Assembly: GCA_026225255.1 (NCBI GenBank)
Contig: JAMFSJ010000059.1
Coordinates: 38,311 to 102,310 of the forward strand
Direction: 5' to 3'
Origin: Methylacidimicrobium fagopyrum
Lineage (GTDB): Bacteria; Verrucomicrobiota; Verrucomicrobiia; Limisphaerales; UBA11358
DNA length: 64,000 nucleotides
Positions 5,724 to 53,620 of this stretch are shown here, one piece after another. Numbering within the stretch: position 1 is the first letter of the stretch; the number at the start of each line of letters is the position of its first letter. The notes under the pieces were generated by a model that was not told the DNA's origin, searched no databases, and worked only from the letters and a program-made list of their open reading frames with translations. A program made the position numbers and the translations under genes.

Positions 5724-7514
5724 TTATTTTTTCCCGCCTTCAAAATATTCTTCGATCTCTTCGAGCGTCTTGCCTTTCGTTTCCGGCAGGAAGAAAAACG
5801 CGATGATGAAGTAGACGACCGTGCTGCTGGCAAAAAAGAAGAACATGGTCGAATAACCATGCGCGCCGACGGTCGGCAAAAAGACCGCCGCAATCGTGGT
5901 CGAAACGGTTTGGTTGATGAGCAGCGCGAAGCTCATGCCGTTGGAACGGATGCGCGTCGGCATCAGTTCAGTCAGCGCGAGCCAGACGCAAACGCCGGGT
6001 CCAACCGCAAAAAAGCTCACGAACACAAACAGAACCACCGCCGTGAGCCAGCCGTTATTTTCGCTCGGCACGGGCGTGATGAGCGCGTGATCAATTTTCA
6101 GCGGCGCAGTTTTCGCGGTGTCGAGATTGGCGAATGGATTTTTAAAGAACGAAATAACTTTGTTTGCGGGTAGACAGCCTTCGCGCGTGATTTCAATCGA
6201 TTTGGCCGTGACGTCGTCGGAACGAATCGCCGTCGTCGCGCCATGATAATCGCCGTAGGAATAAACGATGACGAGCGTAGCGGGTTGGCCGCCAAAGGTT
6301 TTCCCGGCGAGCAGATTACTGGTCGTTTCCGAATTAAAAGCGAGGGAAAGCGTTTGGTTCGTCGCGACGACTTGCGTTTGCACTGCATCTTTTACATCCA
6401 CGCGCAAGGTTTCGGTCTGGCGAAAAAGCAGTCCGGTGCAAAGCATTGAAACGATGATGCCCGCCGTGCCCAGTGAGAGCAGAAATTTCCGGCCTTTGCG
6501 ATCCACCAAAACGACGGCGATGATGGTCGCGAGAAAATTGACGAGCGTGAACAGGAAATTACAGAAATGCGCGTTCTTATCACCGAGGCCGGCTTGGATC
6601 AAAATCGTGGAGCAATAACCGATGACGGAATTGATGCCTGTGGCTTGATTGCAAGTGAGAATCGCGCACGCGAGCAAAAATGGAATGACGTATTTGCGGC
6701 GCAGCAATGACTCCTTAATTTTTTCGCCGGTGCTTTTGGCCGTGGCAACTTCTGCCATTTCTTTTAATTCCATTTCCGCTTGTTCGCTCGAACGTGAACG
6801 CAACAAGGCAGTGCGAGCCTCATTAATTTTTCCGCGGCGAAACAACCAGCGTGGTGATTCGGTCACGAGAAAACCGCCGATGACAAATAAAATTCCCGGC
6901 GGCAATGAAACCCAGAAAATACTGCGCCACGCGACATCTTTAGCGGCGAAGATTTTTACCGCATCGCCCAGCTTGGAAATTTCATCCACCTTCGCGCTGA
7001 AATACAAACCGATCAAGGCGGCGGCAACAATGCCAAGCGTGAGCATCCATTGAAAAATCCCGGTGCCCTTGCCGCGATTCGACGCCCCAAGACATTCCGC
7101 CAAATACAATGGAATGACGACGCCAATGAAACCGCCGCTGATGCCTTGCAACAAACGTCCCGCCATCAGCAAATCAAAACTGTGCGCGAGTGAAATGATC
7201 GGAATACTGAGGACAAAAAGCAGGCCGCTGACGATCATCATTTTCTTGCGTCCAAAAAAATCCGCCATCACGCCAGCGAATAAAGTGGAGATGACGCTGC
7301 CTAATAACACCGCGGCGACGATGAGGGATAATTGACCGGAGTTGAGCGTTTGGCCCGTGGTCGCGTCCTTGAAGGTTGCTTCCAGATACGGCAACGCGCC
7401 GGAGATGATGCCGACGTCCACGCCGTAAAGCAGTCCGCCTAAACCGGCGACCAAAAGTAGAAAACGATTATAGCCGACTTTAGTGCCGGACGTGCCGGAA
7501 TAATTATTGTTCAT
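5724..7514 (-). CDS. MFS sugar porter (SP family) with a large extracytoplasmic insertion
   Basis: 596 aa. Sugar-porter signatures are present: GRKKMMIVSG, TESPRWLFRRGK, LPETKGKTLEEIE. There is a non-membrane insert of about 125 aa (aa 365-489) between predicted TM9 and TM10. Confidence 0.85.
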   Translation of the reverse strand: MNNNYSGTSGTKVGYNRFLLLVAGLGGLLYGVDVGIISGALPYLEATFKDATTGQTLNSGQLSLIVAAVLLGSVISTLFAGVMADFFGRKKMMIVSGLLFVLSIPIISLAHSFDLLMAGRLLQGISGGFIGVVIPLYLAECLGASNRGKGTGIFQWMLTLGIVAAALIGLYFSAKVDEISKLGDAVKIFAAKDVAWRSIFWVSLPPGILFVIGGFLVTESPRWLFRRGKINEARTALLRSRSSEQAEMELKEMAEVATAKSTGEKIKESLLRRKYVIPFLLACAILTCNQATGINSVIGYCSTILIQAGLGDKNAHFCNFLFTLVNFLATIIAVVLVDRKGRKFLLSLGTAGIIVSMLCTGLLFRQTETLRVDVKDAVQTQVVATNQTLSLAFNSETTSNLLAGKTFGGQPATLVIVYSYGDYHGATTAIRSDDVTAKSIEITREGCLPANKVISFFKNPFANLDTAKTAPLKIDHALITPVPSENNGWLTAVVLFVFVSFFAVGPGVCVWLALTELMPTRIRSNGMSFALLINQTVSTTIAAVFLPTVGAHGYSTMFFFFASSTVVYFIIAFFFLPETKGKTLEEIEEYFEGGKK

Positions 7515-7732
7515 GCAATTCTGATCCTTTGTCTAAAAATATATTTTCTGCCGATACTTTGCCAGTGCCAAACGTAATCCGCCCTCGCCCATTTTGGGGG
7601 ATTGACGGTTTTGGCCGGTCAAGTTAAGCGCGTAAAAAATTTAGGTAAGAGTAATTTCGTTCCGAACCAAACATCCTTAAACTCGTGGGATTCACTTTTA
7701 CCACGCAGCAAAACCCGCCCTAAAAAATCCGT

Positions 7733-7762
7733 TTGACAATTTTCAGCTTTGCATCATTGTAT
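7733..7762 (+). promoter_or_regulatory. Candidate sigma70-type promoter for the riboswitch operon
   Basis: TTGACA at 7733-7738, then 17-18 nt, then ATTGTA/TTGTAT at 7756-7762. It lies about 25 nt upstream of riboswitch helix P1. Confidence 0.4.
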
Positions 7763-7784
7763 CCGCATCCGTTGATTTGACGGA

Positions 7785-7898
7785 CTCATAACGAGTGGTT
7801 GAGGGACTGGCCCGATGACACCACGGCAACCGATTGAACTTTGGTTTCAATGTCAGGTGCCAATTCCAGCCCAGCATCATTAGCTTGGGAAAAATGAG
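7785..7898 (+). promoter_or_regulatory. SAM-I (S-box) riboswitch aptamer
   Basis: CTCATAACGAGTGGTTGAGGGACTGGCCCGATGACACCACGGCAACC...AGGTGCCAATTCCAGCCCAGC...GGGAAAAATGAGAAG. P1 pairs CTCAT (7785-7789) with ATGAG (7894-7898). All conserved S-box blocks are present: GAGGGA, CUGGCCCGAUGA, GGCAACC, GGUGCCAAUUCC. Confidence 0.9.
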
Positions 7899-7919
7899 AA
7901 GCGATGCACAACCGTTTTG

Positions 7920-7957
7920 TCGCCCCTTCTCCTTGTGAGTCGGGGCTTTTTTGTTTT
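7920..7957 (+). terminator. Riboswitch expression-platform intrinsic terminator
   Basis: Stem gcccc..ctc / gag..ggggc (7922-7946) followed by ttttttgttttt. Confidence 0.7.
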
Positions 7958-7965
7958 TAACGAAT

Positions 7966-8030
7966 CATCCTCGTCGTCATCGTCATTCTCATAAATCGAA
8001 ATTGAGGATGACGATGAGAACGAGGACGAG
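7966..8030. repeat. Palindromic element, gaggatgaNgaNgag family
   Basis: Arms catcctcgtcgtcatcgtcattctca (7966-7991) and tgaggatgacgatgagaacgaggacgag (8003-8030). A second copy lies at 24588-24670. Confidence 0.6.
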
Positions 8031-8048: not shown

Positions 8049-9305
8049 ATGAGTGAACAACACGGTTTCATGAAAGCGCTCAAGTGCCGCGAATGCGGCC
8101 GCGAATATCCGCTCACGGCTACGCACGTCTGCGAATTTGACTTCGGCCCGCTTGAGGTCGCCTACGATTACGAGCGCATCAAAAAATCGCTCACGCGCGA
8201 AGCCATCGCGTCGCGCCCGAAAACCATGTGGCGTTATCGCGAACTGCTGCCCATCGCCGGCGAACCGACGGTCGGCAAGCAAGTCGGTTTCACGCCGCTC
8301 GTGAAGGCCGATCGCCTCGCGAAGAAACTCGGCATCCGCGAACTTTACATCAAAAACGACGCCGTGAATTATCCGACGCTCTCGTTCAAGGACCGCGTCG
8401 TCAGCGTTGCGCTGAGCCGCGCGAAGGAACTCGGTTTTGAAACCGTTGCATGTGCGTCCACCGGCAATTTGGCCAACTCCGTTGCCGCCAATGCGGCGAG
8501 CGCGGGCTTAAAATCCTACGTTTTTATTCCGTCGGATTTGGAACAGGGAAAAATTTTGAACTCGCTCATCTACGGCGCAAACGTCATCGCCATCAAAGGC
8601 CATTACGACGAAGTGAATCGTCTCTGCGCCGAGATCGCGGGCAAGTTCGGCTGGGCGTTCGTGAACGTCAATATGCGCCCCTACTATGCCGAAGGCTCAA
8701 AGAGCATGGCGTATGAGATCGCCGAACAACTCGGTTGGAAATTGCCGGATCACACGATTGTCCCGATGGCGTCCGGCTCGTTGCTGACGAAGATTCACAA
8801 AGGCTATCAGGAATTGACCAAGCTAGGTTTGGTGTCGGCGCACAATACGCACATCCACGGGGCGCAGGCGACGGGCTGTTCGCCGATTTCGGTTGCGCAA
8901 AAAGCGGGCTTGGATTTCTTCAAGCCGGTGAAGCCCGACACGATCGCGAAATCACTCGCCATTGGCACGCCGGCGGACGGTTTCTATGCGCTCAAAGTGA
9001 TGCGCGAAACAGCCGCCTACGCCGACGACGTGAGCGACGACGAAATCCGCGACGCGATCAAATTGCTCGCGGAAACGGAAGGCATTTTTGCCGAGACCGC
9101 CGGCGGCGTGACCGTAGGCGTGGCCAAAAAACTCATCGCGTCCGGTAAGATTCCGAAAGATTCTTCGGCCGTGATCTGCGTCACTGGCAATGGATTAAAA
9201 ACGCTCGACGCCGTCAACGGTTACTGCGGCAAACCGCGCGAAATCAAGCCAAGTTTGCGTGAGTTTGAAGCATTGTTGGCGCACGAAGAAAAAGTCGGTG
9301 TATAA
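8049..9305 (+). CDS. Threonine-synthase-family PLP enzyme (ThrC paralogue; predicted O-phosphohomoserine-dependent homocysteine synthase)
   Basis: 418 aa. It has an N-terminal Cys ribbon (CRECGREY...HVCEFDFG) and the PLP-lysine motif YPTLSFKDR. Family assignment is firm. The homocysteine role is inferred from the SAM riboswitch and the adjacent GG-carrier. Confidence 0.85.
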   Translation: MSEQHGFMKALKCRECGREYPLTATHVCEFDFGPLEVAYDYERIKKSLTREAIASRPKTMWRYRELLPIAGEPTVGKQVGFTPLVKADRLAKKLGIRELYIKNDAVNYPTLSFKDRVVSVALSRAKELGFETVACASTGNLANSVAANAASAGLKSYVFIPSDLEQGKILNSLIYGANVIAIKGHYDEVNRLCAEIAGKFGWAFVNVNMRPYYAEGSKSMAYEIAEQLGWKLPDHTIVPMASGSLLTKIHKGYQELTKLGLVSAHNTHIHGAQATGCSPISVAQKAGLDFFKPVKPDTIAKSLAIGTPADGFYALKVMRETAAYADDVSDDEIRDAIKLLAETEGIFAETAGGVTVGVAKKLIASGKIPKDSSAVICVTGNGLKTLDAVNGYCGKPREIKPSLREFEALLAHEEKVGV

Positions 9306-42118: not shown

Positions 42119-42564
42119 AATAAGGTGTTTTTGGGCGGCAGTTTTACGATGTTGAACCAGAAATTCTCGATGAATTGAACGACTTCGATGAACCGGTCGA
42201 AATCCACCGGTTTAACGATGTAACAGTTGGCGTGATGACCGTAAGCGGCGGCCACATCTCGCTCGGCTTGCGAGGCGGTCAGGACAATGACGGGAATCAG
42301 TTTCCACTGCGGATGCGACTTTATTTCCGCGAGCACTTCCAATCCGCCTTTGCGCGGCATGTTCAAATCGAGCAAAATCAAATCGGGCACGGGGGCATCG
42401 GCATAACGGCCTTCGCGACGCAAAAACGCCAGCACTTCCTCACCGTTGGTCACGGTGTGCGGGCGATTAAGAAATTGCGAGGACTTGACCGCTTCCTGCG
42501 CAATGGCCATGTCCGACGGACTATCGTCCGCCATTAAAATTTCAGCTTGTCGCTGGTTTTCCAT
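42115..42564 (-). CDS. Single-domain response regulator
   Basis: The start was trimmed to MENQRQAEILMADDSPSD...LILLDLNMPRKGG...VIVLTAS...YIVKP (149 aa). Upstream, the 271-aa ORF overlaps the kinase gene in another frame. There is an ATGA overlap with the next gene. Confidence 0.85.
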   Translation of the reverse strand: MENQRQAEILMADDSPSDMAIAQEAVKSSQFLNRPHTVTNGEEVLAFLRREGRYADAPVPDLILLDLNMPRKGGLEVLAEIKSHPQWKLIPVIVLTASQAERDVAAAYGHHANCYIVKPVDFDRFIEVVQFIENFWFNIVKLPPKNTLL

Positions 42565-44092
42565 TTTTTTGTCCTTCCGGCAAAGTGAAATAAAAGGTCG
42601 TGCCGTTTCCCGCTGCCGATGCCAACCAAATTTTCCCGCCGTGCCGCTCGACAATTTTTTTGCAAATCGCCAGCCCGATGCCCGTGCCCGGATATTCATC
42701 CCGCGTATGCAGGCGTTGAAAAATACCGAAAATACGTTCGAAGTATTTGGGTTCGATCCCGATGCCGTTATCGCGCACTGAGATCGTCCAAAAACCATCC
42801 CCCTCCCGCGCCGCGCCGAGGTGAATCTCCGGCGTCCGTTCCCCGCAAAATTTAATGGCGTTACCGATGAGATTTTGGAACAGCAACGCCAGTTGCGAAC
42901 CGTCCACCGGCAACGTCGGCAGCGCGTCATGGAGAATCAGCGCCCGGCGTTCGCGGATCGTGACGGACAAGTTTTCCAGCGCCCGTTCCAACGGTTTGGC
43001 AATCTCCATCATTTCAAACTGATGCGGCTGCGAACCGATGCGCGACAACGCCAGCAAATCGTCAATGATGTCCGCCATCCGCTTCGCGCCGTCCACGATG
43101 TGGCCGATCATCTCGTCCTCGTGCGGCGTCAATTTATCGCTACAATTTCGTTTGAGAATTTGTGAAAAACCGGACACCGCCCGCAGCGGCTCCCGCATGT
43201 CGTGCGACGCGACGTAGGCGAATTGTTCCAGTTCCAAATTGGAGCGTTTCAATTCCGCCGTGCGCTCGGCCACGCGCTGTTCCAACTCGACATTCATCTG
43301 CTGGATTTTTGCCTCCGCAGCTTTGCGCTTGGTGATGTCGGCGCGAATGGCGATGTAATGCAACGGCTTGCCGTCCGCATCCAGAAAAGGAACGATCGTC
43401 GTGTCCACCCAATAAAACGAACCGTCCTTCGCCCGATTTTTGATCTCGCCCTTCCACGTCCACCCCTGCCCGATGGTCGTCCACAATTCGCGGATAAACG
43501 CTTGGGGATGATGCCCCGAATTGATGAGCCGATGATCTTGCCCCAACAATTCCTCGCGCGCATATTTTGAGATCGCGCAGAACTTGTCGTTGACGTAAGT
43601 AATTTTCCCCTTCGCGTCCGTGATCGCCACAATCGCGTGTTCATCCAGCGCGGATTTCAAATCGCCCACTTCTTTGAGCGAGTCTCTTAACTGCTCCTCA
43701 ACCGCCTTGCGCTGGGTGATATCCGCGCGGATGGCGATGTATTGACGCGGCTGGCCGTCGGCGTTCAGGAACGGCACGATCGTTGTATCCACCCAATAAA
43801 ATGTGCCATCCTTCGCCCGATTTTTGATCTCGCCCTTCCACACCCGGCCATGCGCCACCGTCGTCCAGAGTTCACGGATAAATTTTTTTGAATGATGCCC
43901 GGAATTGATGAGCCGATGATCTTGCCCCAATAATTCCTCGCGATCATATTTTGAGATCGCGCAGAACTTGTCGTTGACGCAAGTAATTTTCCCCTGCGCG
44001 TCCGTGATGGCGACAATGGCGTGTTCGTCCAATGCCGCCTTCAAGTCGTCGATCTCTTTAAGTGAAGCCTTTAATTGTTGATCCGCCAACAT
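42542..44092 (-). CDS. PAS-PAS sensor histidine kinase (cytoplasmic)
   Basis: 516 aa. Two tandem 128-aa PAS units are about 85% identical. H-box YVASHDMREPLR, N-box FQNLIGNAIKF, G-boxes DNGIGI and GTGIGLAI. Confidence 0.9.
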   Translation of the reverse strand: MLADQQLKASLKEIDDLKAALDEHAIVAITDAQGKITCVNDKFCAISKYDREELLGQDHRLINSGHHSKKFIRELWTTVAHGRVWKGEIKNRAKDGTFYWVDTTIVPFLNADGQPRQYIAIRADITQRKAVEEQLRDSLKEVGDLKSALDEHAIVAITDAKGKITYVNDKFCAISKYAREELLGQDHRLINSGHHPQAFIRELWTTIGQGWTWKGEIKNRAKDGSFYWVDTTIVPFLDADGKPLHYIAIRADITKRKAAEAKIQQMNVELEQRVAERTAELKRSNLELEQFAYVASHDMREPLRAVSGFSQILKRNCSDKLTPHEDEMIGHIVDGAKRMADIIDDLLALSRIGSQPHQFEMMEIAKPLERALENLSVTIRERRALILHDALPTLPVDGSQLALLFQNLIGNAIKFCGERTPEIHLGAAREGDGFWTISVRDNGIGIEPKYFERIFGIFQRLHTRDEYPGTGIGLAICKKIVERHGGKIWLASAAGNGTTFYFTLPEGQKNGKPATS

Positions 44093-44385: not shown

Positions 44386-44544
44386 TGCCAAAATGGTGTA
44401 TAGTGACGCGCGCAGCCAAACGTGAACTTTACATTTTCCGAGCCAACCAATTAACTCTGCGCCATTTATTTTATTTTTATGCTGAAATTTATCGGGCAAC
44501 CTCCGCGTCTAGGATTAATGACGGTTCCATTTTTCAATACGAAT

Positions 44545-45864
44545 ATGAAAAATCTTATAAAACTCTCGGTTTTAGCGTGTATTTTGGTCAGCGGCACGGG
44601 GTCGTTATCGGCTCAAGATGAGGTGCCGGTGCCACCACCCACGCCGGATTATCAACCACTCACCGACCCACAGTTGGATCAATTGCTCGGCCCCATCGCG
44701 CTGTATCCCGATCCGTTGACGGCGCAGATTTTGCCCGCCGCCACCCAGCCCACCCAGATTGTTTTGGCGGATCGCTATATTTTGAGTGGCGGTGATACCA
44801 ACCAGATTGATCAACAACCGTGGGATGCGAGCGTGCGCGGTTTGGCGCATTACCCGACCGTGCTCAAGTGGATGGATGATAATTTGAATTGGACGACGGA
44901 ATTGGGTCAGGCTTTTCTCAACCAACAGCAGGACGTGATGAGTTCGATCCAACGGTTGCGGGCCACGGCGCAAAGTCTCGGCAACTTGCCCTCCACGCCG
45001 CAACAACAGGTGGTGGTGAACCCGACTTATATCGAAATCATTCCCACCGATCCGCAAATCATTTATGTGCCGGTTTACGATCCGACGGTGATTTATTATC
45101 AACAACCGTTCGGCTCACCGTTCATCACGTTTGGTTTCGGCTTCGGAGTGGGACTTTGGTTGAACCACGATTGCGATTGGGGCCATCGCAATATTGTGGT
45201 GTGGAGCCGCAGCCATCCCCGTCCGCCCAATTTTTGGCATGAACCGCCGCATCAACGTTCAACGGTATTCATCAATAATAACAACAATAATTACACGCAT
45301 GTTTGGCACCCGACGAGCCGTCCGGATTTGGTCGGCGGAAATCGCGGTGATCGGGGTTGGAATAACAATCCCGCCGCGCGCCGCCCCGCGCCCATGACGC
45401 CGCATCCCAATCCGCCAGCCAATAATCAAATTCACGGCGGCAATTTCAACAATCAAGGCGGCTCACCGAATAACAATCATGGCAATAATGTTCATCCGGT
45501 GAATCCGCCCGGTAATAACAATCCGCCCGCGCACAACAGCGTCGGCCCGGCGATCCACGATAATACGCCCAGCCACGCTGCGCCCGCGGCGCCAGCTCAA
45601 CATTTTTCGCCGGCACCGACAGTGCGTCCGCCCGTCAGTCCGTCAGCGAATAGCGGCGCATTCATCGGCATCCAAAGCTCACAGAACACACGGGATTTTA
45701 GTAATCGCGGCCAGCAAAGCATGCAAACCACCCGCCCGGCACCACCCGTGCAACATTCCTCACCGCCGCCCGCCGCCGCGCCGCCCAGATCAGCTCCGCC
45801 CGCAAATAATAATAGCAATAACGGCGGCGGTAACGGTGGTGGACACAGTTCCGGAAAACATTAA
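44545..45864 (+). CDS. Secreted DUF3300-family protein with long Pro/Asn/Gly-rich tail
   Basis: The start was set at MKNLIKLSVLACILVSGTGSLSAQ (signal peptide). LTDPQLDQLLGPIALYPDPLTAQILPAAT is the DUF3300 signature as I remember it. Confidence 0.75.
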   Translation: MKNLIKLSVLACILVSGTGSLSAQDEVPVPPPTPDYQPLTDPQLDQLLGPIALYPDPLTAQILPAATQPTQIVLADRYILSGGDTNQIDQQPWDASVRGLAHYPTVLKWMDDNLNWTTELGQAFLNQQQDVMSSIQRLRATAQSLGNLPSTPQQQVVVNPTYIEIIPTDPQIIYVPVYDPTVIYYQQPFGSPFITFGFGFGVGLWLNHDCDWGHRNIVVWSRSHPRPPNFWHEPPHQRSTVFINNNNNNYTHVWHPTSRPDLVGGNRGDRGWNNNPAARRPAPMTPHPNPPANNQIHGGNFNNQGGSPNNNHGNNVHPVNPPGNNNPPAHNSVGPAIHDNTPSHAAPAAPAQHFSPAPTVRPPVSPSANSGAFIGIQSSQNTRDFSNRGQQSMQTTRPAPPVQHSSPPPAAAPPRSAPPANNNSNNGGGNGGGHSSGKH

Positions 45865-47096: not shown

Positions 47097-48104
47097 ATGG
47101 CTGGATTTCTTGACGATATTGAACCGCTGAAACAAACTGCGCTGACGGAATTGAAAAACGCGCCCGATCTCGCCGCCTTGGAACAAACCAAAGGCGCGTG
47201 GGTCGGACCGAACGGCAAATTCACCGCGCTGATGAAACAGCTCGGCACGCTTTCCAAGGAAGAAAAGCCCGCCGCCGGAAAATTGATCAATGCCGCCAAG
47301 GTCGAACTCGAAACCGTGCTCGTCGCGCGCCGGGAAGAATTGGAACTCAAAGCTGCGTTGCCGAAGGAACCGACCGATTTCACCCTGCCCGGCCGCCGCC
47401 GCGCGCTCGGCAAATTGCATCCGCTTACGCAGGTCACCGATGACATCGTCCGCGCCTTCCGCAAAATTGGTTTCGCCGTCGCCGACGGACCGGAGATCGA
47501 GGACGAATATCATTGCTTCGACGCGCTCAACACGCCCGCCGACCATCCGGCGCGCGATGCGCAGGATACATTTTATCTCAACACGACGGATAAGCGTTTG
47601 CTCCGCACGCACACCTCGTCGGTGCAAATTCGCGTGATGAAATCGCAACCGCCACCGGTGCGCATCATCGTGCCGGGCCGCGTGTATCGCCGCGACAACG
47701 CCGACGCCACGCATAATCCGACATTCCACCAAATCGAAGGTCTTTACGTGGATAAAAACGTCACCGTAGGCGACCTGAAAGGCACCGTGGAATTCGTCTT
47801 CCGCGAACTCATGGGCAGCGACGTGAAGATCCGTTTCCGTCCGCATTATTTCAGCTACACCGAGCCGAGCTACGAGATTGATTTCACCAACGCGCTCGTG
47901 AAGAAGATGGGCAAGGACTGGCTGGAGATCGCCGGCTGCGGCATGGTGCATCCGCAAGTCTTCGAGAACGTCGGCTACGATCCCGAAACGTGGACCGGCT
48001 GGGCCTTCGGCTTCGGCATCGAACGCATCGCCATGCTCCGCTACGGCATCAATGACATCCGGCTGTTCTACGAGAACGATGCAAAGTTTTTGAAACAGTT
48101 TTAA
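47097..48104 (+). CDS. pheS: Phenylalanine--tRNA ligase alpha subunit
   Basis: 335 aa. Class II motifs are present: DHPARDAQDTFYL, RTHTSSVQIR, FRPHYFSYTEPSYEID, GWAFGFGIERIAML. Confidence 0.95.
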   Translation: MAGFLDDIEPLKQTALTELKNAPDLAALEQTKGAWVGPNGKFTALMKQLGTLSKEEKPAAGKLINAAKVELETVLVARREELELKAALPKEPTDFTLPGRRRALGKLHPLTQVTDDIVRAFRKIGFAVADGPEIEDEYHCFDALNTPADHPARDAQDTFYLNTTDKRLLRTHTSSVQIRVMKSQPPPVRIIVPGRVYRRDNADATHNPTFHQIEGLYVDKNVTVGDLKGTVEFVFRELMGSDVKIRFRPHYFSYTEPSYEIDFTNALVKKMGKDWLEIAGCGMVHPQVFENVGYDPETWTGWAFGFGIERIAMLRYGINDIRLFYENDAKFLKQF

Positions 48105-48118
48105 TTTATACAATCTAG

Positions 48119-48907
48119 ATGTCCACTGACGTCAATCTAAACGCAGAATTCGCGGTGGTTTTCAATAACTTCCTTTTGCAAACCAATAAAATTATAACGT
48201 TTAGAAATGATGTTTTATTTTTAATTGAAAATGGTAAAGACCAACTGCTTTCAAAAGCGAATCAAAAAATTCGAATCATAAAGGATTTCAGCAAAAGTGC
48301 AAAAACGCCAATAAAAGTCACACCAGAAGTTGAAAAAATGGTTGGCGAAAGCTTAGACGCCTTCCAATTTGTGAAAAATCCCGATATTTCAATTCGACAT
48401 TCAAAAAGAAGAATTGATGCAGCCACAATCGTTTTCATCCACTCCCTGCTTGATGCTACGATTTACTCCCTATGCAAAATAAGTCATTCATTAAATTCAA
48501 ATGATTGGACACCCTTTATAAAAGACCGAAAAATAGAAATTGAAACGGTTCTAGCGAATACCAAAGATAAGGTTATTCAAGCTGCCACTGAAAAATTTCT
48601 CATCAGTTTAGAGCGCGAGTCTATCGTTAAAAGATCCGATATTTTACATGCAATTTGTAAACCCACACCACAGACCAAGCATGCAAATAATTTCGTGTTT
48701 TCTAAAGCTTCCTTGGAAGCATTTGATAATTTATGGCACGATATTGTGCACGGACAACAATCCGGGAGAGAGATTTTCACCATTGATCAGGAATTAAATT
48801 TTGGACTTAAGGCCGGAGTTTACTTTTCATCAATGGTTAGACACAAATACGGGCTTGAAAAAGAAATTTCTGAACAACAATACGAACAATTAGTCTCTGA
48901 AAACTAA
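48119..48907 (+). CDS. Low-GC orphan protein, possible HEPN-type domain
   Basis: 262-aa ORF starting 14 nt after the pheS stop. Hand count of 48121-48240 gives 37 G+C in 120 nt (31%). It contains an Rx4H motif (KRSDILHAI, R172-H177) and a second degenerate one (NLWHDIVHG). I recognise no family. Confidence 0.6.
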   Translation: MSTDVNLNAEFAVVFNNFLLQTNKIITFRNDVLFLIENGKDQLLSKANQKIRIIKDFSKSAKTPIKVTPEVEKMVGESLDAFQFVKNPDISIRHSKRRIDAATIVFIHSLLDATIYSLCKISHSLNSNDWTPFIKDRKIEIETVLANTKDKVIQAATEKFLISLERESIVKRSDILHAICKPTPQTKHANNFVFSKASLEAFDNLWHDIVHGQQSGREIFTIDQELNFGLKAGVYFSSMVRHKYGLEKEISEQQYEQLVSEN

Positions 48908-48969
48908 TTTGAAAGCTGTGTTATTTTTGATTAGCAAGTGAACAATTTAACACACGGCTAGCTGATTGG

Positions 48970-49191
48970 TTAAATTTTATACGGCACCCAAATCCCCGCG
49001 TCCTCCTCCGAGAAATCTTTCGTATTCCGCGTCACCAAAATCCACCCCAGTTCCTTCGCCGTCGCCCAGATAATTGCGTCCGGTAGTTTCAGTTTGTGCT
49101 GACGCCGAATTTTTATTGCCCGTTCGGCCACGGCTTTTTCCACGGGTTGAACCTTGAAGCGGGAGAGAAATTCCCACGTGATCGCTTCTTC
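48970..49191 (-). pseudogene. VapC (PIN-domain toxin) C-terminal remnant
   Basis: Hand translation gives EEAITWEFLSRFKVQPVEKAVAERAIKIRRQHKLKLPDAIIWATAKELGWILVTRNTKDFSEEDAGIWVPYKI then stop. The LPDAIIxATA and LVTRNxKDF blocks are typical of the second half of PIN toxins. The frame has no ATG, lacks the N-terminal DxN half, and has no antitoxin gene. Confidence 0.5.
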
Positions 49192-49310: not shown

Positions 49311-50072
49311 ATGAAAAATCTATCCGTCCGCTTTGAACTCTTTTTCAGCCTGACTATCGCCGCGCTTATCACGGTTGGTTGTCAAAGTTCTAATTCTAGC
49401 GGCGGCTCAGGGACGACGTCGCCGGCCGTTTCGGGAGCCACGGTGCAAACACACGCATCGCAGACGGCGATGACGCCGGCGCAGGCGCTCGCTGAATTGA
49501 AAGCGGGCAACGATCGCTTCGTCACCGACAAACCGTTGCATCGCGATTTTCCCACGCAAGTCAAAGCCACCGCCGCCGGGCAATATCCGTTCGCTGTGGT
49601 CTTGAGTTGTTTGGATTCGCGTCAACCCATCGAAATCGTTTTGGATCAGGGCGTCGGCGATATTTTCAGCGCGCGCGTCGCCGGCAATGTGTTGAATGAC
49701 GACATTCTTGGCAGTATGGAATTCGCCTGCAAAGCTTCCGGCTCGAAGCTGATCGCGGTCATCGGCCATTCCAATTGCGGCGCGGTCAAAGGCGCGATTG
49801 ATGACGTCCAACTCGGCAATCTCACCGGCTTGCTCACGAAAATTAAACCGGCGATTGATGCGGTGCCGGAAGATGATCAGGCGCGCAATTCGAAGAATTA
49901 CAAGTTCGTGGATGAAGTTTCTGAAGCAAACATAAAGTTGGTGCTGAAAGAAATCCGCGAGCGCAGTCCGATTCTCCGCGAGATGATCGATAAAGGCGAA
50001 ATCGGAATCGTCGGCGGCATGTATGATCTGAAGACTGGTAAGGTGCAGTTTTACGAAAACGATTCCAAATGA
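49311..50072 (+). CDS. Beta-class carbonic anhydrase, lipoprotein-type signal
   Basis: 253 aa. Lipobox-like ITVGCQSS. Zinc ligands SCLDSR and GHSNCGAV. Confidence 0.85.
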   Translation: MKNLSVRFELFFSLTIAALITVGCQSSNSSGGSGTTSPAVSGATVQTHASQTAMTPAQALAELKAGNDRFVTDKPLHRDFPTQVKATAAGQYPFAVVLSCLDSRQPIEIVLDQGVGDIFSARVAGNVLNDDILGSMEFACKASGSKLIAVIGHSNCGAVKGAIDDVQLGNLTGLLTKIKPAIDAVPEDDQARNSKNYKFVDEVSEANIKLVLKEIRERSPILREMIDKGEIGIVGGMYDLKTGKVQFYENDSK

Positions 50073-50121
50073 AAGCGGCGCTTAACCGGTTCAAACCGTC
50101 AGCTGATTTTCGTTTAATCGT

Positions 50122-50793
50122 GTGAAGGAGTTCTTCGCCACCCTGCCCCGCAACATCCTCGGCTGTTTCCGTGGCGGGATGATTCTCTGGCATTTGGTGC
50201 TCATCGCCCTCACCTTCTTGATCGTCAGTTCCGGTTTCGATTGGTTTTATTTCTGTTCCACCCGCAGTCCGTTGCTGTGGGCTTGGATGTTTCCCGCCGC
50301 ATCGATCGGCGGGCTCGTGCCGCTGATGTTGCCGCTCATCTTGATTGTGTCCGGCTACATCACAAGTCACGTCCGAATCTCCCGCACCGGCTGGGCCATC
50401 GGCCAGGCGGCGCTCATTGGCTCGCTGATTTCTTCCACTTACAAAGCGTTCACGGGTCGCGTTCATCCGTCCCTGCACGAGACCGGCGCGGACATCAGTC
50501 GCGATTTCCGGTTTGGCCTGCTGCACGGCGGAGTGTTCTGGGGCTGGCCGTCGTCACACACCACCATCGCCTTTGCCATGGCGGTCACGGTGTTCATCCT
50601 ATTCCGCAAACAGCGATGGCTTGGCTGGCTGGCATTGATTTACGCTTTTTACATCGGCCTCAGTGTTTCGATGACCATCCATTGGTTTTCAGATTTCGTG
50701 GCAGGCGCAATTTTGGGCACGGTCATCGGCGTGGTCGTGGGAAAAAGTTTTTCGGCTGGAGAATCAAAGCCCTTGCCGCCGGGAATTTCCTGA
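50122..50793 (+). CDS. PAP2-family membrane phosphatase
   Basis: 223 aa, polytopic. PAP2 motifs are present: KAFTGRVHP (KxxxxxxRP), WPSSHT (PSGH-like), HWFSDFVAG (HxxxD). Confidence 0.75.
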   Translation: MKEFFATLPRNILGCFRGGMILWHLVLIALTFLIVSSGFDWFYFCSTRSPLLWAWMFPAASIGGLVPLMLPLILIVSGYITSHVRISRTGWAIGQAALIGSLISSTYKAFTGRVHPSLHETGADISRDFRFGLLHGGVFWGWPSSHTTIAFAMAVTVFILFRKQRWLGWLALIYAFYIGLSVSMTIHWFSDFVAGAILGTVIGVVVGKSFSAGESKPLPPGIS

Positions 50794-51175: not shown

Positions 51176-53620
51176 ATGAAAGTCACCCTTAACTGGCTCA
51201 AACAATATGTTGATTTCAACTGGTCGCCCGAGGAATTGACCGAACGGCTCACCATGCTCGGCCTCGAAGTCGAGGGCGTGCAGAAAATTTCCGGCGCGTT
51301 CGACGGCATCGTCGTCGCGCAAGTGATCACGCGCGATAAACATCCAGGTGCAGACAAACTGTCGATCTGCCGCGTCAATGACGGCACGGGCGAACGCCAG
51401 ATTGTCTGCGGCGCGCAAAATTTCAAAGCGGGCGACAAAGTCCCGCTCATCCTGCCCGGCGCGTCGTTGCCGTTGAAGCCCGGCGACAAGGAACCGTTCA
51501 CCATCAAGGTCGGCAAGATTCGCGGCGTGGAATCACACGGCATGTTGTGTTCGCATGAAGAATTGGGACTTGATCCCGATGCTATCGGCCACAAAAAAGA
51601 AGATGGCTTGCTCATCCTGCGCGAAGACGCGAAGGTCGGCCAACCGTTCGGCGAATATCTCGGCCGCAGCGGCAGCGATGTGGTCTATGATTTGGAAGTC
51701 ACCCCGAACCGTCCGGACTTAAACAGTCTTATCGGCATCGCGCGTGAAATCGCGGCGGTCACGGGCAATGCGTTGCGCATTCCTGAATTAAAAACTCAAA
51801 ATCTAAAATTAAAAACTGCCGACCTCGTCGCCGTTCGTCTCGAAGATTCAGAGAATTGCCCACGCTACACCGCCCGTGTCATCAAAGGCGTGAAAGTTGG
51901 ACCGAGCCCGGATTGGCTGAAATCGGCGCTGGAAAAAGTCGGCATCCGCAGCATCAGTAATATCGTGGACGTGACGAATTACGTCATGCTGGAAAGCGGC
52001 CAACCGTTGCATGCATTTGATTATCATCTCATCGCCAAAAGTGCGGACGGCAAACCAACCATCGTCGTCCGTCGCGCGACGGCGGAAGAAAAATTCAAGA
52101 CGCTCGACAACCAAGAACGCACGCTCGCGGCGGAAATGTTATTGATCGCCGACGAACAAAAAGCCATCGCGCTCGCCGGCGTCATGGGCGGCGCGAATAC
52201 GGAAATCAACAGCGACACCAAAGACGTGCTGCTCGAGAGCGCGTATTTCTCGCCCGTAAATATCCGCCGCACGAGCAAGCTGCTCGGCTTGCGCACGGAT
52301 GCGAGCTATCGCTACGAACGCGGCGCGGATGTGGGCATTTGCGATTGGGCGAGCCAACGCGCGGCGCAATTAATTTTAGAAACCGCCGGTGGCGAATTGG
52401 CCGAAGGCGTCGTGGACGTTCAACCGCAAATCAAAGCGGCGAAGGAAATTGTTTTGCATTATGCAAAAACGGACGCGCTGTTGGGTGTGCATATTTCGCA
52501 CGCAGAACAACTCTCGCATCTCACCAAACTCGGTTTGACGTTGATCGAACAAACGCCCGGTGTTTGCACGTTCAAAACGCCGTCGTGGCGCGTAGACTTG
52601 AAACGCGAAGTGGATTTGATCGAAGAAGTCGGACGCTTGCACGGCGTGAATAATATTCCCAGCACGCCGCCCCGCGGTACCATCGGCGCGAATGCATTCG
52701 ATACCGTGTATGATCAAATCGCTGAAGTGCGCCGCATCTTGAGCAGCCTCGGTTTGAACGAAGCGCAAGGGCAAACGCTCATCGCAAAGTCAGAATGCAG
52801 AAGTCAGAACGCGGAAGAAATTGTCGCGCTCGCGAATCCGTTAAGTTCGGACATGGACGTTTTACGCCCAAGTTTGTTGCCCGGATTGATTCATTCGCTG
52901 CGCCATAATGTCAGCCGCAAGAATTACGACGTGGCGTTGTTTGAAGTTGGTCGCGTGTTCACCAACGTGAACGGTCAGACGAAAGAAAATCGCAGCATCG
53001 CCATCGCCATCACCGGCCAACGCGCCCTGCCCTTTTGGAGCGGCGGCGAACGCGACGCCAAGTTTGACGCCTATGATTTGAAAGGGCTCGTCGAAGATTT
53101 GCTGGAGCAATTTGGTTTGCGCGGCATCGTGTTCGGCAAACGTGCGGAAAGCACGGGATTATTCCTGGAATCTGCCGCCGTGACGCTTGGTGGAAAATTG
53201 CCATTAGGTGAACTTGGACAATTGTTGCCGCCGCTCGCTAAAAAATACGATCTGCGCGACGCCGTTTATCTCGCGGAATTTAATCTCGACCTGCTGCTCG
53301 CCAAACGCAATGCGGCGAAGTCGTTCAAGGCGTTGCCGCAATTTCCATCGAGCCGGCGAGACGTGGCAATTCTCGTTGCCGAAGCGACCACGCACGAAGC
53401 CGTATTGCAAACCGTCAAATCCGCCAAGCCCGCGAATCTGGAAAGTCTCGAGTTGTTCGACGTGTTCCGCGGCAAAGGCATTCCCGAAGGTCAAAAAAGT
53501 TTGGCCTATGCGTTCACCTATCGTTCACCGGAAAAAACGTTGACCGATGCCGACGTGAACGGCGCGCACGAAAAAGCCGTGGAAAGTTTGACGCAGAAAT
53601 TAGCCGCAGTCGTGCGCTGA
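51176..53620 (+). CDS. pheT: Phenylalanine--tRNA ligase beta subunit
   Basis: 814 aa. It has an N-terminal tRNA-binding OB domain (KHPGADKLSICRVNDG), B3/4 and B5 domains, and a C-terminal FDX-ACB domain. Confidence 0.95.
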   Translation: MKVTLNWLKQYVDFNWSPEELTERLTMLGLEVEGVQKISGAFDGIVVAQVITRDKHPGADKLSICRVNDGTGERQIVCGAQNFKAGDKVPLILPGASLPLKPGDKEPFTIKVGKIRGVESHGMLCSHEELGLDPDAIGHKKEDGLLILREDAKVGQPFGEYLGRSGSDVVYDLEVTPNRPDLNSLIGIAREIAAVTGNALRIPELKTQNLKLKTADLVAVRLEDSENCPRYTARVIKGVKVGPSPDWLKSALEKVGIRSISNIVDVTNYVMLESGQPLHAFDYHLIAKSADGKPTIVVRRATAEEKFKTLDNQERTLAAEMLLIADEQKAIALAGVMGGANTEINSDTKDVLLESAYFSPVNIRRTSKLLGLRTDASYRYERGADVGICDWASQRAAQLILETAGGELAEGVVDVQPQIKAAKEIVLHYAKTDALLGVHISHAEQLSHLTKLGLTLIEQTPGVCTFKTPSWRVDLKREVDLIEEVGRLHGVNNIPSTPPRGTIGANAFDTVYDQIAEVRRILSSLGLNEAQGQTLIAKSECRSQNAEEIVALANPLSSDMDVLRPSLLPGLIHSLRHNVSRKNYDVALFEVGRVFTNVNGQTKENRSIAIAITGQRALPFWSGGERDAKFDAYDLKGLVEDLLEQFGLRGIVFGKRAESTGLFLESAAVTLGGKLPLGELGQLLPPLAKKYDLRDAVYLAEFNLDLLLAKRNAAKSFKALPQFPSSRRDVAILVAEATTHEAVLQTVKSAKPANLESLELFDVFRGKGIPEGQKSLAYAFTYRSPEKTLTDADVNGAHEKAVESLTQKLAAVVR

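Follow-up and report, generated by a model that had tools for sequence, protein, structure and literature searches.

A member of a large HEPN-like protein family without annotation, at the pheS-pheT locus of Methylacidimicrobium fagopyrum

HEPN ribonucleases (RNases) are recognised by a short hallmark, Rx4-6H, in which the arginine is followed by a polar residue (PMC4621449; PMC3710099), and HEPN domains also carry a conserved acidic residue (PMC3710099). Within this superfamily, RiboL-PSP-HEPN domains are found in fusion to the endoRNase L-PSP and in a ParB operon, and are distantly related to AbiD/AbiF (PMC3710099). In the HEPN toxin SO_3166, a change of the arginine to glycine, or of the histidine to alanine, abolishes toxicity (PMC4621449). 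A literature search returned no paper connecting HEPN with pheS or pheT. Here we describe gene X, a reading frame of 262 amino acids (48119-48907, + strand) in a 64,000-nucleotide stretch of Methylacidimicrobium fagopyrum DNA, which is referred to as the window. An earlier note, made from the same letters alone, had placed this open reading frame 14 nt past the stop codon of pheS, with coordinates that agree with ours, and had proposed it as a horizontally acquired, HEPN-type defence or toxin gene of low guanine-plus-cytosine (GC) content.

We consider it probable, on the whole, that gene X belongs to a large family of solo HEPN-like proteins acting as RNase toxins or abortive infection (Abi)-type effectors, that it is an old resident of the pheS-pheT locus, and that the copy in the window is disabled. 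What is new is an unannotated family within the known HEPN superfamily; the function given to it is one that we infer.

The protein family and its Rx4H motif

Gene X was described in the earlier note as an orphan, a label that does not survive a wider search. An exhaustive phmmer search against 1.84 billion cluster representatives (clusters at 50% identity) returned 531 representatives at E<=1e-3, of which 303 reach E<=1e-10. The 531 are mostly about 250-270 aa long, and the part common to them spans residues ~90-250. A word-indexed search gave eight close homologues of 48-100% identity, and a profile search of a 5.8-billion-protein set gave 25 proteins, none of them Pfam-annotated. Every relative that has a source name or a precomputed Pfam annotation is either a "hypothetical protein" or unnamed, with no Pfam domain. 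The related contigs come from ENA, JGI and Logan metagenome assemblies. Patterns of the close clade match only 1 of 185,579 species-representative genomes, the soil metagenome-assembled genome DATJRH010000047, which is labelled Candidatus Aquilonibacter sp. and placed by NCBI in Vulcanimicrobiota. No paralogues of gene X were found within the window. Between the window copy and its nearest relatives, the ratio of nonsynonymous to synonymous divergence (dN/dS) is 0.08 at a dS of 0.86-0.98. Judged by these homologues and this ratio, gene X is a real gene and no chance frame.

The protein is all-helical, as the earlier note had supposed from the letters. The AlphaFold2 model of the full length is entirely helical, with a predicted local distance difference test score (pLDDT) of 90.6 and a predicted template modelling score (pTM) of 0.86. 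The model and two alignments, A1 and A2, delimit an N-terminal helical region (aa 1-87; 48119-48379, + strand), with long helices at 7-38 and 40-60 followed by a lower-confidence linker; F15 and F28-R29 are kept in part of the family. The conserved core domain (aa 88-262; 48380-48904, + strand) is marked out by the match ranges of relatives as the portion present in all 531 of them, and its separate model is likewise all-helical at a pLDDT of 93.3. The ten longest members of the family show no recognisable extra domains.

Conservation was counted on alignment A2, which holds 126 members of the family. The sole invariant residue is H211 (126/126), and R206 is present in all members except one. 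Near-invariant residues also include H108 (124/126), D203 (122/126), D112 (118/126), and C180, S168 and L176 (115/126 each). Position 207 is polar in 121 members, being histidine in 108, glutamine in 10 and asparagine in 3. Because of this conservation, the family signature can be written D-x-L-R-H-x-I-V-H-G, an Rx4H motif whose arginine is followed by a polar residue. At the level of the family, the Rx4-6H hallmark of the HEPN superfamily is therefore present, formed by R206, the polar residue at 207 and H211. The window protein itself departs from it, reading W206-H-D-I-V-H211 within D203-N-L-W-H-D-I-V-H211-G (48725-48754, + strand), at the C-terminal end of helix 196-211.

The earlier note had correctly read two peptides, KRSDILHAI (R172, codon 48632-48634, and H177) and NLWHDIVHG (204-212), and had chosen the first as the catalytic pair. 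The RSDILH string (R172-H177; 48632-48649, + strand) is not the family motif, as position 172 is lysine in 98 of the aligned members, and position 177 is phenylalanine in 54, histidine in 38 and tyrosine in 12. The second peptide, mentioned only as a related string, is the one that holds the family site, although its arginine is a tryptophan in the window copy. Thus, the affinity to HEPN nucleases that the note proposed is supported, with a different motif, R206-H211, in place of R172-H177. A further conserved string, HSLLD (48440-48454, + strand), carries H108 and D112 in the long helix 88-125, and D112 might, by analogy, be the acidic residue that HEPN domains conserve.

The position of the motif in the model was compared at the level of secondary structure. 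Helix 196-211 ends with the motif, after which come a 10-residue loop (212-221) and the long last helix (222-244); several short helices (127-179) connect the long helix 88-125, which bears H108 and D112, to helix 196-211. As modelled, this helix-loop-last-helix arrangement around the motif is as in HEPN domains. In profile searches, 9 of the 126 members match the Pfam family HEPN_RiboL-PSP at E<=0.01, the best of them at 5e-6, and 27 do so at E<=1; HEPN_Apea is matched by 3. All other Pfam families are matched by 1-8 members each (DUF6586 by 8, NPA by 4, the remainder by 1-2), and in PHROGs, which served as a noise control, no family is hit by more than one member. Four of the HEPN_RiboL-PSP matches were inspected singly and found collinear, one of them aligning protein residues 81-215 with profile positions 30-184 of 191, and in these four the arginine falls at about profile position 149-155.

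Several results weigh against a HEPN assignment. The 21 members with listed scores lie at 13-18 bits, all under the HEPN gathering score of 28.4, although the best match (E 5e-6) is not among these 21, and the family consensus reaches 13.8 bits. By Pfam's own gathering criterion, the family is outside PF18735. For the window protein, Pfam, NCBIfam and PADLOC gave no match beyond a chance one to Gar1 (E 0.12), the PDB searched by sequence (phmmer) gave none, and a search of the PDB with the family profile found nothing. Foldseek, run with the full model against the PDB and BFVD and with the core against the PDB, returned no significant neighbour, and none in the PDB at E<=0.001. The top PDB match of the core is the HEPN toxin 7ae8 (E 1.3, TM 0.23), and the full model meets the Csm6 structure 6tug at a non-significant E of 0.7; the lists are dominated by long-helix proteins, so that these structural searches speak neither for nor against HEPN. 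Taken together with the motif, the topology and the recurrent profile matches, we regard it as quite likely that the family of gene X is a divergent part of the HEPN superfamily for which no model exists, its nearest described relative being RiboL-PSP-HEPN, which lies towards the Abi-like proteins.

A different view of the same residues is that gene X encodes a four-helix-bundle metal-dependent enzyme or sensor of the DinB/YfiT-like kind, with H108, D112, C180, D203 and H211 as ligands and the Rx4H string as a coincidence. These near-invariant residues are typical ligands, and the all-helical fold and the missing significant HEPN structural match would suit such a protein. However, no DinB-type or metalloenzyme Pfam family recurs among the 126 members, while HEPN_RiboL-PSP recurs in 27. 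Additionally, R206 is as conserved as the putative ligands, and the polar residue after the arginine and the position at a helix end fit HEPN specifically. We therefore hold a metal-dependent protein to be very unlikely.

The loss of the arginine in the window copy deserves separate attention. Codon 206 is TGG (48734-48736, + strand), where the 125 other aligned members have arginine. Among the relatives, this codon is CGG in locus L011 and CGT in loci L001, L005, L025 and L026, and the change is therefore attributed to one C-to-T transition. It is the only private change of the window protein at a column invariant in the other seven of its eight-member clade; the other members of this clade have 0-10 private changes at invariant columns, none of them at column 206. 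TGG is also the codon in L027, a Logan-assembled contig (SRR18933205) that is perhaps not an independent sample; this contig and the window disagree at eight positions of pheS and at none in gene X. An assembly artefact was considered as the source of W206 and rejected on the strength of this identical codon. Since replacement of the arginine or the histidine abolishes the toxicity of SO_3166, the window copy is probably disabled, and by this analogy its allele has most likely lost all or most of its catalytic activity. As the remainder of the protein is untouched, the change is probably recent. The alternative to a recent loss is that the window protein keeps a non-catalytic role.

The pheS-X-pheT locus and its base composition

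The upstream anchor of the locus is the 3' end of pheS (47097-48104, + strand), which encodes the 335-aa alpha subunit of phenylalanyl-tRNA synthetase (PheRS). The relatives' pheS carries the Pfam domains Phe_tRNA-synt_N and tRNA-synt_2d, and the pheS of the window is 91-96% identical to those of related loci. Its stop codon, TAA, occupies 48102-48104, and the ATG of gene X follows at 48119, leaving a spacer of 14 nt (48105-48118, + strand; TTTATACAATCTAG). Neither a Shine-Dalgarno-like sequence nor a terminator was found in this spacer, and a scan of the pheS-X boundary gave no terminator-like site, with promoter-like sites at chance level. In the other clade, the spacer is a single nucleotide (TGA-A-ATG). 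With so short a spacer, no terminator-like site and no convincing promoter-like site, the proposal that gene X rides on pheS transcription stands, and co-transcription with pheS is a plausible reading of the locus. It is also plausible that translation of gene X is weak or coupled, and it is probably weak because a Shine-Dalgarno sequence is lacking and the codons are AT-rich.

The genes pheS, X and pheT and their neighbours were mapped by tblastn on 18 related loci. In L011 and L020 the order is pheS - vapB - vapC - copy of the pheS 3' end - X - pheT, and in L025 it is X - pheT. In L026, carbonic anhydrase is followed by a pheS 3' copy, vapBC, a second pheS 3' copy, X and pheT. L005 and its related loci read pheS - ORF6N - X - pheT 5' remnant - PIN(-) - RHH(-), while L001 and its related loci read pheS - X - PAP2 - carbonic anhydrase, with pheT elsewhere. 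The window itself has the order pheS - X - truncated PIN(-) - carbonic anhydrase - PAP2 - pheT. Where X meets pheT directly, the spacer is 5-6 nt (L011, L025) or X overlaps the pheT start (L026). In all loci of the close clade, X thus has pheS (whole or as a copied 3' end) on one side and pheT (whole or as a 5' remnant) on the other, except where one of the two has moved or the contig ends, in which case X adjoins the remaining one. As the common denominator of these arrangements, the ancestral order was likely pheS-X-pheT with spacers of a few nucleotides.

The neighbouring genes in the window show how this interval has been altered. After X comes an AT-rich spacer of 62 nt (48908-48969; GC 0.35), in whose place pheT starts, at or beside the X stop, in L011, L020, L025 and L026. 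It is followed by a truncated vapC (PIN toxin) pseudogene (48970-49191, - strand; Pfam PIN, E 2.3e-8), in which only residues 49-121 remain; the N-terminal part and the vapB/RHH antitoxin partner are gone. This remnant is 90% identical to the intact PIN gene that is convergent to X in L005. A beta-carbonic anhydrase gene (49311-50072, + strand) and a PAP2-family phosphatase gene (50122-50793, + strand) now part X from pheT (51176-53620, + strand), the gene of the PheRS beta subunit, which directly follows X in L011, L020, L025 and L026. The order of carbonic anhydrase and PAP2 in the window (49311-50793) is reversed in L001 (8850-10341, PAP2 first), and the pheS-pheT interval has therefore been rearranged repeatedly. 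In L005, a pheT 5' remnant (8785-8934; residues 1-53, 52% identical) lies after X and runs into the 3' end of the convergent PIN gene; the 8-kb flanks retrieved for that locus contain no full-length pheT.

Identity to the window indicates a shared history. L001 is 95% identical in pheS, 84% in X, 75% in pheT, 79% in PAP2 and 75% in carbonic anhydrase; L005 is 91% identical in pheS, 50% in X and 90% in PIN; L026 is 49% identical in X and 66% in pheT. From these values it follows that X was inherited along with its flanks. It diverges disproportionately between two allele classes, with purifying selection inside each (omega 0.08-0.14).

The composition of gene X is foreign to this setting. Its GC content is 0.352, with 0.43 at first, 0.30 at second and 0.32 at third codon positions (GC3, 0.323 to three places), against a GC3 of 0.62-0.73 in pheS, pheT and the genes around them (0.63-0.73 in pheS, pheT, the carbonic anhydrase and the PAP2 gene). 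The earlier hand count of 37 G+C among the 120 nt at 48121-48240 was exact, and the low GC is borne out by 789-nt sliding windows across the 64 kb (mean 0.533, sd 0.034), which fall below 0.42 at gene X alone, to a minimum of 0.341. This is the deviant composition by which islands are recognised, X standing at GC 0.35 against 0.53, and it is the only such region in the window. At the borders of X in the window, no direct repeats, integrase or tRNA were found, and neither a presence/absence polymorphism nor repeats with mobility genes accompany it.

In fact, the low GC is an equilibrium property of this gene. All X copies have a GC3 of 0.32-0.42, compared with 0.54-0.79 in neighbouring genes, the inserted vapBC and ORF6N cassettes included. 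Between the window and L001, 46% of the shared four-fold sites of X differ, with 13 AT-to-GC and 13 GC-to-AT exchanges, and the GC at these sites (GC4) is 0.46 in both copies, in comparison to 0.87-0.90 in pheS. It is the balance of exchanges and the equal GC4 in the two copies that point to equilibrium. Distant members of the family also lie under the GC of their flanks, with a smaller gap (0.49-0.54 vs 0.54-0.61). As a conjecture, low expression of a toxic product may maintain this composition.

The view that gene X is a recent low-GC defence or toxin island past pheS, with R172 and H177 as its catalytic pair, was that of the earlier note. It draws on the low GC, on the patchy wider family, often found by mobile-element genes, and on the 3' end of pheS, which is demonstrably an insertion hotspot in relatives. 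Nevertheless, R172 and H177 are not conserved, relatives down to 49% identity keep X at the pheS-pheT site, and the nearest relative is separated by a dS of ~0.9 with unchanged GC3 and balanced substitutions. The window has no border repeats, integrase or tRNA, and the cassettes that were truly inserted (vapBC, ORF6N) have host-like GC. Recent acquisition is thus rejected by the shared site, the dS and the stationary GC3, under purifying selection, and we find an island of this kind hardly credible. Read from the comparison of loci, gene X has long resided in the pheS-pheT operon and been passed on vertically; it is not a recent insertion.

The insertions at the pheS 3' end form a phenomenon of their own. 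In three lineages, a vapB-vapC cassette of ~0.73 kb has on either side a direct repeat of the terminal 59-75 nt of pheS, with 85-97% identity (L011:7183-7254 and 7914-7985; L006:482-556 and 1216-1290; L026:214-272 and 931-989). L005 and L006 differ solely by the vapBC cassette. In L005, the gene of an ORF6N protein (7377-7988; PF10543, E 2e-32, 203 aa) is interposed between pheS and X, an arrangement confined to one sub-clade. The start of this gene and the stop of pheS overlap; its GC3, at 0.73, is host-like unlike that of X, and it ends in a ~45-nt copy of the pheS 3' end (about 7950-7995). No integrase lies near these cassettes, and in the window the pheS 3' end occurs only once. The vapBC cassette has its own promoter-like TTGACA...TATTTT inside two to three direct repeats of AGGATTCCAAA (L011:7246-7310), a unit kept in the three lineages (also L006:545-612 and L026:262-330). 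This unit may be a VapB operator.

Elsewhere in the window, three further features were recorded. A SAM riboswitch (S-adenosylmethionine; RF00162, 7783-7900, + strand, 76 bits, E 4e-16) is the only match at the Rfam gathering threshold. A sensor histidine kinase (42542-44092, - strand) holds two nearly identical tandem PAS-like repeats, with the segment ...LKSALDEHAIVAITDA.GKIT.VNDKFCAISKY.REELLGQDHRLINSGHH... present twice. A secreted protein of 461 aa (44479-45864, + strand) ends in a long C-terminal tail of low complexity, rich in N, P and G, with NNNNN and GGGNGGG runs.

Possible function and wider contexts

By analogy with characterised HEPN proteins, members of the X family would be metal-independent endoribonucleases. 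Catalysis would be carried out by R206-x4-H211 at the end of helix 3, probably assisted by D203, H207 and the helix bearing H108 and D112. The family members would act as a toxin or abortive-infection-type effector with no dedicated antitoxin gene. In the close clade, the pheS transcript would also carry gene X, which lies tightly between pheS and pheT and is probably translated weakly, and the R206W change of the window copy would be a recent dead or attenuated allele.

The wider family was surveyed in nine further neighbourhoods, and no conserved partner gene was found in them; the genes on either side of the family member vary from one context to the next and share no relationship. In six of these neighbourhoods, integrases, a resolvase, an IS element (insertion sequence), ParE or RES toxin modules, or NACHT and Cas1 lie within 5 kb; the remaining ones have housekeeping surroundings, and one distant member adjoins cysS, tsaD and the gene of the CCA-adding enzyme. 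In L028 (1642-2712), a distant member stands beside a 356-aa protein with a dCMP/cytidine-deaminase domain and an integrase, and on the P0161 contig another stands beside a NACHT NTPase and a Cas1 homologue; both may be conflict-system neighbourhoods. The earlier statement that no cognate antitoxin is evident agrees with this survey. A conserved small antitoxin gene next to X, as expected of a type II toxin-antitoxin (TA) system, was not found: L015 and L017 carry upstream genes that show no relationship with one another or with X, and ORF6N is found before X in a single sub-clade.

A toxin or defence role of the family is suggested by its HEPN affinity, its solo architecture and these contexts. 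A number of searches count against such a role. In PADLOC 2.0, the window protein has no match and the 126 members give scattered single hits at E>=0.0019, while NCBIfam and PHROGs give only noise on the 126 members. A tblastn search with the family consensus found no match in 50,697 phage records and 72,556 plasmids, and IMG/VR, scanned both with the close clade and with a sub-alignment of 20 members, yielded no relatives. Therefore, nothing in these collections ties the family to a named defence system. Furthermore, a toxic RNase that stays long inside an essential operon without an antitoxin is unusual, and the strong purifying selection could equally fit a non-toxic cellular role.

Such a role would make gene X a non-toxic helical accessory tied to PheRS or translation, RNA-binding or regulatory, in which the arginine and histidine serve in binding and not in cleavage. 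The tight pheS-X-pheT packing, with spacers of 1-14 nt and ~5 nt and the pheT overlap in L026, would suit this role, as would the retention of the site in all close relatives, the dN/dS of 0.08 and the absence of an antitoxin and of matches in defence or phage libraries. The distant member by cysS, tsaD and the CCA-adding enzyme, and the otherwise perfect conservation of the W206 copy, point the same way. Against this, no link to pheST exists outside the clade, where integrases, IS elements, TA modules, and NACHT with Cas1 are often nearby, and the family is missing from most genomes, as the single species representative matched by the close-clade patterns illustrates. Between clades, X also diverges far faster than its flanks, with an identity of 50% where pheS keeps 91% and the PIN remnant 90%, and its composition is foreign to the operon. 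We judge this accessory role unlikely, and continue to prefer an RNase effector.

A more elaborate scheme would combine the RNase with the operon. Gene X would be an integrated, selectively AT-rich RNase gene of a pheS-X-pheT operon, possibly serving in addiction or quality control, with expression tied to the synthesis of PheRS and with tRNA or the mRNA of the operon as target. The promoter-bearing TA cassettes would integrate in this lineage-specific hotspot by duplication of the final 45-75 nt of pheS without an integrase, and W206 would be a natural escape allele. This scheme is speculative, and as a whole we deem it quite unlikely.

If the RNase effector reading holds, a sizeable family, of at least 531 clusters at 50% identity, represents a new branch of the HEPN RNase superfamily, for which Pfam, NCBIfam and PADLOC have no model and whose members are all named "hypothetical protein" at present. 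The residues worth targeting are R206 and H211, not R172 and H177, and W206 offers a natural active-site mutant beside wild-type orthologues. The long residence in the essential pheST operon is unusual for a toxin-like gene, with a low GC that is maintained and not decaying, and gene X cautions against taking low GC as a sign of recent transfer. An insertion mechanism that may merit its own study is hinted at by the duplication of the pheS 3' end around small TA cassettes.

Comparison with known systems

The cassettes at the pheS 3' end resemble the integration hotspots of the tRNA/tmRNA type, in that each cassette between pheS and X is followed by a duplicated pheS 3' end of 45-75 nt while pheS stays intact. 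They differ from these hotspots in having no integrase and in being only ~0.65-0.73 kb long, and no flanking repeat is present at X in the window.

Among the HEPN proteins, the HepT toxins of HEPN-MNT type II/VII TA systems (SO_3166; PDB 7ae8, "HEPN(R102A) toxin") share with the X family the Rx4H motif and the polar residue after the arginine, and 7ae8 is the top-ranked, though non-significant, PDB chain for the X core. However, X is about twice as long, and no MNT nucleotidyltransferase partner is present in the loci examined.

The RiboL-PSP-HEPN family (PF18735) is alike in being all-helical, with R-[polar]-x3-H at a helix end. It is the only Pfam family matched recurrently, and the matches cover most of its 191-position profile. 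The X family differs from it by an added N-terminal helical region of ~87 aa, and neither the fusion to endoRNase L-PSP nor the ParB operon was found in about 12 X neighbourhoods and the ten longest members.

The solo HEPN proteins of abortive infection (AbiD/AbiF, which are Abi_2, AbiJ, AbiU2 and AbiV) differ from X in that X matches no Abi model of Pfam or PADLOC, is not on the plasmids and phages searched, and in the close clade sits in an essential housekeeping operon. The likeness lies in a single gene with no cognate antitoxin, and these proteins may serve, by analogy, as the working model for the action of gene X.

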